A stretch of 64,000 nt of DNA from positions 105,653 through 169,652 of the forward strand of contig DJWB01000001.1 in assembly GCA_002441425.1 (NCBI GenBank), read 5' to 3'. This DNA is from Patescibacteria group bacterium UBA6241 (lineage in GTDB: Bacteria; Patescibacteriota; Minisyncoccia; Phycocordibacterales; Phycocordibacteraceae). Below are positions 14,792 through 15,565 of this stretch, one piece after another. Position 1 is the stretch's first letter, and every line of letters begins with the position of its first letter. Below the pieces are notes generated by a model that ran no database searches, was not told where the DNA came from, and was given only the letters and a program-made list of their open reading frames with translations. The translations under genes were made by a program, and so were the position numbers.

Positions 14792-15367
14792 TTAGCTCTT
14801 ATGAAGTCCGATTGTCTGCAGCAGGCGAGCTACTTCAACCGTTCGGGATACTTTTACCGTGTATTTAATTTTCCCAGATGATAGTTTAAGCAAGTTAAAC
14901 TTTGGACGGTAACCTAATTCACTAAGCATGTCTCGTGTGTCTTCAGCAAGAAGACGGGAATTATTTACAAAATTAACCATTTGGTACCCACGATCCTTGT
15001 ATATACATCCGTCAGTCTGAATAAGACCGCGCAAACATTCTTCCGTGTATAACTGATTCTTGCGTATCCATACTGGAACTCTAGCCTCCTGCTTTGCCTT
15101 TGACCCTTGTCCTACTTTCCAAGGCATCCATTCGTCTAAAGCTTTTGAATAAACACTTATATCAAAACAATTTTGGTGCTTTCGCCTAACAATTGAAACT
15201 TTATTATGAGGTAAGAGTTGCTTAAGAGCTGTAATAATTTCCTCGGCAATTGCTGGATAGCGCTCATCGCAAGAAATGCGTAAGCGGGTTACCCGCTTAT
15301 TAGGACTAGACAGGTTTCCATCTCCAAGAGCTATGCCAACAATGTAAGCAAGTACTTTCTTATCAAT
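14792..15367 (-). CDS. LAGLIDADG-family homing endonuclease (two-motif, single-chain type); start codon uncertain
   Basis: Two dodecapeptide motifs, LAYIVGIALGDGNLS and LRGLIQTDGCIY, about 100 aa apart. There is no canonical start between the tRNA 3' end and the first motif. The ORF frame continues without a stop through the upstream tRNA-Leu, with an in-frame ATG at 15452-15454. Confidence 0.65.
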   Translation of the reverse strand: MDKKVLAYIVGIALGDGNLSSPNKRVTRLRISCDERYPAIAEEIITALKQLLPHNKVSIVRRKHQNCFDISVYSKALDEWMPWKVGQGSKAKQEARVPVWIRKNQLYTEECLRGLIQTDGCIYKDRGYQMVNFVNNSRLLAEDTRDMLSELGYRPKFNLLKLSSGKIKYTVKVSRTVEVARLLQTIGLHKS

Positions 15368-15368
15368 A

Positions 15369-15452
15369 GCTTTTATTTGTGCCGCAGGCGGGACTTGAAC
15401 CCGCACGCCGTTTCCGACAGGGGATTTTGAGACCCCTATGTCTACCAATTCC
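15369..15452 (-). tRNA. tRNA-Leu(CAA), class II
   Basis: Reverse complement GCCGCGGTGATGGAATTGGTAGACATAGGGGTCTCAAAATCCCCTGTCGGAAACGGCGTGCGGGTTCAAGTCCCGCCTGCGGCA. The cloverleaf is contiguous; anticodon loop CTCAAAA. Confidence 0.8.
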
Positions 15453-15565
15453 ATCACCGCGGCATTGACGTTACTATATTTCACTAGGTAAATAATAACA
15501 AATATGAAGATACTGCACAGGCAATACTCTCGTAAAGGAGGGACGCGATGCTACAATAGCGTGTA

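Follow-up and report, generated by a model that had tools for sequence, protein, structure and literature searches.

A putative selfish cassette of a tRNA-Leu(CAA) allele and a LAGLIDADG homing endonuclease in Patescibacteria

In a 64,000-nucleotide stretch of the genome of Patescibacteria group bacterium UBA6241 (contig DJWB01000001.1), hereafter the window, a gene for a LAGLIDADG homing endonuclease directly follows the gene for tRNA-Leu(CAA), and its reading frame extends without a stop codon through the entire tRNA gene. This locus raises the question of why a homing endonuclease should abut an uninterrupted tRNA gene, and of how it is expressed there. An initial annotation, made from the sequence of the window, had put forward three possibilities: a free-standing endonuclease homing beside a conserved tRNA gene, the remnant of an excised intron, or an endonuclease expressed from the unprocessed tRNA precursor. 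Based on the comparison of the window locus with related loci (labelled L001, L082 and so on, and described as endonuclease-bearing or endonuclease-less), we favour, with moderate confidence, an explanation of the first kind. The region at about 15510-14792 on the minus strand would be a selfish cassette of about 0.72 kb, comprising a promoter, a particular tRNA-Leu(CAA) allele (type A) and a free-standing LAGLIDADG homing endonuclease; the linked tRNA allele would escape cutting, and the endonuclease would be expressed as the trailer of the tRNA.

Linkage to tRNA-Leu(CAA) and to its alleles

Relatives of the endonuclease were collected by a protein search, which yielded 159, and by a scan of one genome per species, which yielded 166 and from which the best 80 loci were fetched. 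These 80 loci come mostly from bins labelled as Patescibacteria types, with a few under other labels. In 72 of them, the endonuclease is immediately preceded by a tRNA-Leu(CAA) gene of the same strand, and this gene is contiguous in every case. The remaining eight comprise four loci that end at a contig edge, three with the tRNA downstream (L029, L068 and L059) and one without a tRNA (L073). In L029 and L068, the stop codon of the open reading frame (ORF) lies 1-2 nucleotides (nt) ahead of the 5' end of an intact tRNA-Leu(CAA), while in L059 the tRNA-Leu(CAA) lies just downstream on the opposite strand. The adjacency of tRNA-Leu(CAA) and the LAGLIDADG ORF, which the initial annotation had noticed and which ARAGORN, Rfam and Pfam corroborate in the window, is thus far beyond chance across the 80 loci and not incidental. 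The family is compact, with 14 clusters (50% identity) at E<=1e-30 and a sharp drop beyond them. With regard to phages as a possible vector, a scan of the viral contigs of IMG/VR gave just two weak partial matches and no member of the family.

The gene order in the window is relA, parB, tRNA-Leu(CAA), endonuclease, then peroxiredoxin and miaA, and within the window's clade the endonuclease is either present or absent from this arrangement. A first metagenome scan, with a 29-mer from the window tRNA, retrieved two endonuclease-bearing loci (L081 and L083) and two endonuclease-less ones (L082 and L084), and the gene order of L082 is that of the window apart from the missing endonuclease. ParB was later used as the anchor, together with the genomic context of the closest relatives; this added the endonuclease-bearing L087 and the endonuclease-less L086, L088, L089, L090 and L091. 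Five of the seven genomes examined in the inner ParB clade of the window have no endonuclease. L091 represents a clean empty site, in which the tRNA is followed by CAATAAAAAG, the terminator hairpin and the peroxiredoxin stop codon.

The endonuclease-bearing genomes of this clade all exhibit a type A tRNA-Leu(CAA), GCCGCGGTGATGGAAT...GGGGTCTCAAAATCCCC..., and the endonuclease-less sisters a type B tRNA-Leu(CAA), GCCGGGGTGGCGGAGTTGGTATACGCGGCGGATTCAAAACCCGC.... The window tRNA is 93-95% identical to the other endonuclease-bearing tRNAs of the clade and 68-70% identical to the type B tRNAs of its nearest sisters, L086 and L091. In a neighbour-joining tree of ParB, the window (type A, endonuclease-bearing) pairs with L086 (type B, endonuclease-less) with 85% bootstrap support, and L008 (type A, endonuclease-bearing) pairs with L091 (type B, endonuclease-less) with 100%. 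The region upstream of the tRNA shows where the two arrangements part. The window and L086 are colinear from parB to CCTGTGCAGTA, after which the window exhibits a promoter-bearing leader of 47 nt that is common to the endonuclease-bearing L087 and L083 and absent from the endonuclease-less sisters. CCTGTGCAGTA falls within the resident tRNA promoter motif CTGTG[AC]AGTA[CG]GAT, which is located 10 nt ahead of the tRNA in L086, L089 and L091. The colinearity up to this point and the leader that comes after it indicate the direction of the change in these lineages, namely the insertion of a type A cassette into a type B locus. No type B tRNA, or piece of one, was found elsewhere in the window.

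A second clade is that of L004, an endonuclease-bearing locus with the order relA, parB, tRNA, endonuclease and miaA. Its closest ParB relatives, L092 (88% identical), L093, L094 and L095, are all endonuclease-less. Between L004 and L092, tRNA identity amounts to 86%, and the anticodon and variable arms do not differ at all. The changes comprise three compensated pairs in the acceptor stem, one pair in the D-stem, one compensated pair in the T-stem and two bases of the T-loop; seven of them are located in the final ~22 nt of the gene. The tRNA of L002 is identical to that of L004, yet the DNA of the parB region is just ~71% identical between these two loci. What sets the endonuclease-linked alleles apart from the sister alleles are compensated base changes, located in the acceptor stem and the T-stem; type A also occurs in the endonuclease-less L082. 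The tRNA allele tracks the endonuclease and not the host in both clades.

Over the family as a whole, the identities of the endonucleases and of their tRNAs are nearly uncorrelated (Spearman 0.19). The endonucleases of L027 and L039 are 82% identical, their tRNAs 72% identical and their flanks unrelated, and the block of similarity stops 5 nt past the stop codon, which suggests that the bare ORF can also switch its tRNA background. There seem to be two modes of mobility, one of the bare ORF, as in L027 and L039, and one of the ORF with its tRNA allele, as in the two ParB-anchored clades.

Remnants of tRNA genes were found beside the ORF. Based on the best alignment to all tRNAs, the 100 nt past the stop codon resemble tRNA-Leu more closely than do any of 324 control segments in 11 of 79 loci. 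These matches comprise two complete tRNAs, eight fragments of the last 14-26 nt of tRNA-Leu and, in L055, one segment of the D-arm. A weight-matrix scan past the stop codon placed nine of the 79 loci above the 99th percentile of the controls (0.8 expected), while searches with each locus's own tRNA, or with nhmmer, mostly failed, as the fragments are short and often belong to another allele. A normal trailer and terminator come after several of the fragments, such as those of L050 and L076. The fragments of L042 and L041 match the intact tRNA of their own locus at 9 and 11 of 18 positions, respectively, and the fragment of L018 matches the tRNA of L094, which is of the endonuclease-less allele type, at 16 of 18 positions versus 13 of 18 for its own tRNA. 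In L019 and L034, a tRNA fragment immediately precedes the endonuclease and separates it from the intact tRNA, and in L027 the 5' half of a tRNA persists on the upstream side of the intact one. Our reading is that these fragments stem from resident tRNA genes that were displaced. The 3' fragments mostly start in or beside the T-loop, which hints at the site where the DNA would be cut.

Two further observations concern the type A tRNA. The type A tRNA-Leu(CAA) of the window is 83% identical to the tRNA-Leu(UAA) of the same genome (1770-1853, minus strand), and type A may have been derived from the UAA isoacceptor by a change of the anticodon. Past the tRNA of L082 (~11095-11070, minus strand), the trailer reads C ATG TAT ATA AAA GGGTGG, which resembles both the C ATG that follows the tRNA of L098 and the AGGGTGG past the endonuclease stop codon of the window; this trailer may, though the indication is weak, be the footprint of an endonuclease deletion.

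The protein and its expression

The two LAGLIDADG motifs described in the initial annotation are present, and the Pfam matches of the window ORF to LAGLIDADG_3 (PF14528, 5.8e-11) and LAGLIDADG_WhiA (PF14527, 1.3e-5) bear out a single-chain enzyme with the LAGLIDADG fold. The cores of the motifs are ..GIALGDGNL.. and ..GLIQTDGCI.., and the aspartates that close them, D20 and D123, are invariant in an alignment of 47 sequences. The AlphaFold2 model of the 195-residue form is complete, with a predicted local distance difference test (pLDDT) score of 96.4 and two alpha-beta-beta-alpha-beta-beta-alpha halves. Its top Foldseek match among solved structures is I-DmoI (E 6.5e-10, template modelling score 0.68-0.75); further fold matches include I-Tsp061I and the endonuclease domain of PI-SceI, and WhiA ranked lower. 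Neither Pfam nor AlphaFold2 indicates a domain beyond the two LAGLIDADG halves, be it a C-terminal helix-turn-helix or intein domains. NCBIfam gave only weak matches, to intein endonuclease domains, and a sequence search of the PDB with the endonuclease returned nothing useful.

The ratio of nonsynonymous to synonymous substitution rates is 0.04-0.19 for pairs of relatives, whereas in the clade of the window itself synonymous sites are saturated. The 81 copies examined are without exception intact and fall within a narrow range of lengths. Taken together, these results suggest a single-chain LAGLIDADG enzyme of the I-DmoI type that is active. Its predicted target is, in tRNA-Leu(CAA) genes without the endonuclease, probably the part that encodes the T-arm and the 3' side of the acceptor stem. 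Some sources label relatives of this protein as 'DNA-binding transcriptional regulator WhiA', a name that rests on fold similarity alone.

With regard to the start of the protein, no ATG, GTG or TTG is found between the end of the window tRNA and motif 1, as the initial annotation had stated. Motif 1 begins 27 nt past the discriminator base and not 17 nt as first given, and the codons in between are CAA ATA AAA GCT ATT GAT AAG AAA GTA; the in-frame ATA and ATT, which had been placed at 15352-15362, lie at the positions given in Table 1. Among 73 loci with an upstream tRNA, 38 exhibit a canonical start 1-6 nt past the discriminator base (27 ATG, 8 TTG and 3 GTG), ten exhibit one at 7-15 nt and 18 exhibit one farther away. 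At least 10 of the 18 loci with a distant start (>15 nt) have a TATAAT or TACAAT box 5-11 nt ahead of it, which implies that the transcript would begin at or beside the start codon. In the window, TANNNT boxes occur 5-10 nt ahead of 20.9% of the start candidates versus 5.7% of internal start-like codons (3.7-fold), and Shine-Dalgarno-like motifs are not enriched (15.7% versus 21.9%, respectively). The genome thus looks dominated by leaderless mRNAs.

In the loci where the two genes abut, the gap between them is too short to hold a promoter or a Shine-Dalgarno sequence. Because promoter space is lacking, excision of the tRNA would be the sole plausible source of a leaderless 5' end, and the mRNA of the endonuclease is probably effectively leaderless, being freed by the 3' processing of the tRNA. 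Precursors of tRNAs without an encoded CCA are cut endonucleolytically after the discriminator base by enzymes of the RNase Z type, which leave a 5'-phosphate on the trailer. All seven tRNA genes of the window lack an encoded CCA, and in all seven a C directly follows the discriminator base. Without an encoded CCA, these seven tRNAs are expected to be cut by such an enzyme directly past the discriminator base. The hairpin and T-run that follow the endonuclease (Table 1) are likely the terminator of a joint tRNA-endonuclease transcript. The earlier proposal of expression from the tRNA precursor is therefore probably right for transcription, given the lack of promoter room and the terminator after the endonuclease, whereas translation through the tRNA finds no support.

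The absence of a canonical start is shared by the window, L001, L003, L008, L081, L083/L087 and ~15 further relatives, which exhibit an ATA or ATT 3 nt past the discriminator base. L005, L007, L009, L013 and L018 have the same junction (gap of 54 or 48 nt, phase 0), with an ATG exactly where the window's clade has ATA or ATT. In L037 and L049, which have no canonical start either, an ATT or ATA is found within the first two codons past the tRNA. L098, the nearest relative of the window enzyme (67% identical), has the same gene order, and its type A tRNA is followed by C ATG. Most likely, the ATA at 15376-15374 would serve as a weak near-cognate start of the window's endonuclease.

Based on these observations, we propose the following mechanism. 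The cassette would have taken the conserved tRNA slot between parB and peroxiredoxin/miaA, replacing the resident type B tRNA. The enzyme would cut endonuclease-less tRNA-Leu(CAA) genes, probably in the part comprising the T-arm and the 3' acceptor strand, and the break would be repaired from the cassette-bearing copy, by which both the endonuclease and the linked tRNA allele would be copied in. The linked allele would evade cutting through the compensated base changes in its stems. Such a process would correspond to intronless homing as in phage T4 SegB. Without a promoter or Shine-Dalgarno sequence of its own, the ORF would be transcribed as the 3' trailer of the tRNA, and an RNase Z-type cut after the discriminator base would leave an mRNA with its start codon 1-6 nt from the 5' end. 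In the window's clade, a weak near-cognate ATA or ATT start would take the place of ATG. Of the possibilities raised by the initial annotation, the free-standing endonuclease homing beside a conserved tRNA gene is thus the one that agrees with the family-wide linkage, with presence and absence at the same gene order and with the co-travelling tRNA allele.

Alternative explanations

The stop-free frame across the tRNA and the ATG in its D-arm were correctly described in the initial annotation, and they could be taken to mean that translation starts at this ATG on the unprocessed tRNA precursor, the protein then carrying an N-terminal extension of 28 residues of translated tRNA. In line with this, the window, L001, L003, L008, L081 and L083/L087 all have an in-frame D-arm ATG in addition to lacking a canonical start past the tRNA, and the D-arm ATG is the start picked by gene callers (P0001). 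However, two of the three frames of the window tRNA are stop-free, most of the 67 abutting tRNAs have one or two such frames, and in 35 of these 67 loci the frame of the endonuclease crosses the tRNA without a stop codon, versus 36.0 expected under random phase, with all three tRNA-to-ORF phases represented (14, 35 and 18 loci). The same D-arm ATG and open frame are found in the endonuclease-less L082, the tRNA of which is identical to that of the endonuclease-bearing L003. As the observed openness is at the level of chance, the open frame through the tRNA is a coincidence; the frame and the ATG belong to the tRNA and are not adaptations to the ORF, contrary to the significance first attached to them. 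The ATG codons just past the tRNA in L005, L007, L009, L013 and L018 and in the nearest relative, L098, also speak against a start in the D-arm, as do the lack of a Shine-Dalgarno sequence, the location of the ATG within the D-stem ~10 nt from the predicted transcript start, and the completeness of the AlphaFold2 model without the extension. We consider this explanation very improbable. The lengths of the database relatives are bimodal, with ~190 residues for those with their own start codon versus 215-245 residues for the others, in which the N-terminal extension is translated tRNA-Leu(CAA), with the anticodon loop CTCAAAA legible in the peptides. Gene callers prolong the ORF into the tRNA in P0001 and ~40 other database proteins, and the products of 215-245 residues, like the WhiA labels, look like systematic annotation errors. 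The missing start codon could also mean that the window copy is decaying or silent, having lost its ATG and remaining untranslated at a late stage of the homing cycle; the retention of an ATG in L098 would fit this. Nevertheless, a canonical start is missing throughout the clade, and its ORFs are all intact even though the endonucleases compared are no more than 55-61% identical, the AT[A/T] codon is conserved while the neighbouring codons vary, and the early ATT or ATA of L037 and L049 recurs where a canonical start is again missing, so a silent copy seems unlikely to us.

Other explanations concern the nature of the element. The protein might be a domesticated LAGLIDADG protein, such as a WhiA-like regulator or a tRNA/RNA maturase, inherited vertically with tRNA-Leu(CAA) and often lost, and not a mobile nuclease. 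The strong purifying selection and the absence of pseudogenes in 81 loci could be explained in this way, as could the deep divergence of the endonucleases (45-67% identity) at a fixed position, the WhiA annotation of some relatives and the presence of WhiA among the fold matches. Domestication is more difficult to reconcile with the invariance of both catalytic aspartates, with a protein that stops after its second LAGLIDADG domain without a C-terminal helix-turn-helix, and with a very patchy distribution (166 species representatives; five of the seven genomes of the inner ParB clade endonuclease-less). It also leaves the decoupling of endonuclease similarity from tRNA or host similarity, and the displaced-tRNA fragments beside the ORF, to be accounted for, and we judge it improbable. 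The remnant of a group I intron or other self-splicing element in tRNA-Leu(CAA), of which the ribozyme was lost and the ORF left stranded on the 3' side, has some precedent, since group I introns are known in tRNA genes of Patescibacteria (PMC13011429) and LAGLIDADG enzymes are usually encoded in introns or inteins; the partial tRNA 3' ends past the ORF are superficially like a 3' exon. This origin is nevertheless hardly credible, as the tRNA is uninterrupted in each of the 72 loci where it precedes the ORF, and as the ORF starts 1-6 nt past the tRNA end, which leaves no space for a ribozyme. Moreover, the survey of tRNA introns reports no LAGLIDADG-bearing tRNA intron in Patescibacteria (PMC13011429). 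An Rfam search of the window region and five related loci identified no intron or ribozyme, but only tRNAs and a chance-level match to MicC (E 0.95) on the terminator hairpin.

Several points weigh against the cassette explanation that we favour. The host tree is that of ParB alone, and parB adjoins the cassette; because of this proximity, co-conversion of parB would blur the interleaving of alleles, but would not create it. Type A also occurs without the endonuclease, in L082 and L084, which have the same tRNA as L003, and the tRNA sequence alone is no marker of endonuclease presence. The similar endonucleases of L027 and L039 stand behind dissimilar tRNAs, which means that the tRNA does not always travel with the endonuclease. 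Within the window's clade, the endonucleases are 55-67% identical whereas the type A tRNAs are 93-99% identical, and therefore the transfers are not recent, or they came from diverse donors; the allele may also have been replaced repeatedly during a long vertical co-inheritance. On the side of expression, the window copy has no canonical start codon, and RNase Z was not located within the 64-kb window. Initiation at AUA or AUU on leaderless mRNAs is inefficient in the bacteria studied so far, and its use here would be unusual for bacteria. The cleavage, the target site, the end of the transcript and the N-terminus of the protein are all inferred.

A broader version of the cassette explanation can be put forward only tentatively, and we regard it as possible and not as probable. 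The tRNA allele and the endonuclease may be the two parts of a gene drive directed at a tRNA gene that is essential and single-copy, in which the nuclease destroys sensitive alleles and the linked allele is the antidote, and by which the tRNA is repeatedly rewritten across Patescibacteria; the expression would be mitochondrion-like, from a leaderless mRNA that starts with AUA or AUU in the window's clade. Should the cassette explanation hold, then in a very large bacterial phylum the sequence of an essential tRNA is being shaped by a selfish nuclease, which would account for the sharply different tRNA-Leu(CAA) alleles, with compensated stem changes, of close relatives. The family would also provide a natural set of I-DmoI-like enzymes with putative sensitive and resistant targets, useful for studying the evolution of specificity and for engineering. 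In addition, the architecture predicts that Patescibacteria have leaderless mRNAs produced by tRNA processing, some starting with AUA or AUU, which fits the leaderless signal observed throughout the window.

Features of the locus and known systems

The features of the window locus are listed in Table 1.

Table 1 Features of the tRNA-Leu(CAA)-endonuclease locus in the window
Feature	Position	Strand	Basis or remark
tRNA-Leu(CAA), contiguous, no encoded CCA, type A allele	15463-15380	minus	ARAGORN and Rfam, 49.7 bits
Open frame of 230 residues, in frame through tRNA-Leu(CAA)	15484-14792	minus	ORF translation
Single-chain LAGLIDADG ORF, ~194 residues if ATA is the start	15376-14792	minus	TAA stop codon at 14794-14792
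LAGLIDADG motif 1, LAYIVGIALGDGNLS	15352-15308	minus	
LAGLIDADG motif 2, LRGLIQTDGCIY	15034-14999	minus	
D-arm ATG, in frame with the ORF	15454-15452	minus	
Junction CAA ATA, right after discriminator base 15380	15379-15374	minus	Junction table, start-codon census
ATA, candidate near-cognate start, 3 nt past the discriminator base	15376-15374	minus	
ATT, second candidate start	15367-15365	minus	
Putative cassette leader, 47 nt	15510-15464	minus	Promoter scan and locus comparison
Promoter-like site in the leader: -35 TTGTTA, spacing of 17 nt, -10 TATAGT	15501-15496 (-35), 15478-15473 (-10)	minus	Promoter scan
CCTGTGCAGTA, last part colinear with endonuclease-less sister L086; left junction of the putative cassette	15521-15511	minus	Upstream-region comparison
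14-bp hairpin (-17.7 kcal/mol) followed by a T-run	14773-14737	minus	Between the endonuclease stop codon and the convergent peroxiredoxin stop codon (14732)
tRNA genes of the window	379, 502, 1770, 1869, 10524, 15380, 26514		

With regard to the neighbouring genes, parB (15566) exhibits a TACAAT 8 nt ahead of its ATG. The order parB, tRNA-Leu(CAA), miaA is recurrent, being found in the clades of both the window and L004. The gene miaA, which encodes a tRNA isopentenyltransferase, begins right past the stop codon of the endonuclease, or overlaps it, in L002, L004, L006, L007, L019-L021, L025, L061, L062, L070 and L078, and in such loci the endonuclease looks like it sits within a tRNA-miaA transcription unit. 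In L080 (~727-790), the 5' end of the endonuclease exhibits a frameshift, within a run of A, relative to the TTG located 1 nt past the discriminator base, and an in-frame stop codon comes next; either the assembly is wrong here or the copy is decaying.

Two other elements were observed near tRNA genes of the compared loci. In Patescibacteria loci, genes for tRNA-Leu, -Trp, -Tyr and -Pro are followed, at a distance of 25-120 nt, by a conserved element of ~100 nt, GTGCCGGGGGAGCAAGC...GCGTAGGGACTTGAAAGCCGGAGCGATG.... This element comprises two hairpins backed by compensatory changes, matches no Rfam family and is absent from the window. It was identified in L019 (2709-2809 and 4722-4796), L034 (2838-2926), L088 (2638-2735, minus strand) and L051 (4736-4814, minus strand), and more weakly in L005, L029, L030, L052, L015, L011 and L016. 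The second is an odd tRNA-like tandem array in L054 (3605-3963, minus strand), where four head-to-tail units of 92 nt, called 'tRNA-Ser(ACT)' by ARAGORN and overlapping by 2 nt, are located by a tRNA-Thr, just downstream of the endonuclease; one such 92-nt unit is present in L047 (3907-3998, minus strand).

Our coverage of the literature, which is incomplete, yielded no description of this tRNA-endonuclease arrangement. The closest known system is intronless as well: SegB of phage T4 is a free-standing GIY-YIG homing endonuclease located in a tRNA gene cluster, which recognises 27 bp including the sequence of a T-psi-C stem-loop, pulls neighbouring tRNA genes into the recipient and, in homing, erases the markers of the recipient (PMC2330249). 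As with SegB, the endonuclease gene of the window family lies beside tRNA genes and is not borne by an intron, a tRNA allele co-occurs with it, and most of the displaced-tRNA fragments begin in or beside the T-loop. In contrast to the phage-borne GIY-YIG enzyme, the window family is of the LAGLIDADG type and resides on the cellular chromosome of Patescibacteria. It is also tied to one single-copy tRNA gene, its presumed target, the 3' end of which it abuts, and it apparently depends on the transcription and processing of this tRNA for its expression.

With regard to the enzyme itself, I-DmoI and I-Tsp061I exhibit the closest folds, with ~190 residues and two motifs that each carry an acidic catalytic residue. 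Whereas these enzymes are archaeal and located in rRNA introns, the window protein, which is ~20% identical to them, is bacterial and not intron-borne, and a tRNA gene is its presumed target. WhiA has the same fold, in agreement with the weak PF14527 match, but it has lost the catalytic residues and exhibits a C-terminal helix-turn-helix; the window family keeps both aspartates and lacks this domain.

The proposed mode of expression resembles the tRNA punctuation of mitochondria, for which, in 1981, Ojala et al. reportedly described leaderless mRNAs and the use of AUA and AUU besides AUG. In both cases, the 5' end of the mRNA would result from the excision of a tRNA, with the start codon within a few nt. 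In contrast to mitochondria, a single selfish gene on a bacterial chromosome would be concerned, and we infer both the processing enzyme and the start codon.

Within the same phylum, LAGLIDADG endonucleases of the Candidate Phyla Radiation (CPR)/Patescibacteria have been described in rRNA insertion sequences and introns, with no mention of tRNA (PMC11270868). These enzymes share with the window family their superfamily and a selfish lifestyle in very small genomes; they are located within rRNA genes, whereas the window family forms a separate compact group. The tRNA-abutting arrangement is described neither in the survey of tRNA introns (PMC13011429) nor in that of rRNA insertion sequences (PMC11270868) of Patescibacteria. 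Finally, islands inserted by integrases at the 3' ends of tRNA genes likewise exhibit an intact tRNA on one side and a partial tRNA 3' end on the other. Unlike such islands, the loci described here comprise no integrase and measure ~0.6-0.7 kb, and their partial copies often differ from the intact tRNA; the partial copies therefore fit displaced resident genes and not att-site duplications.

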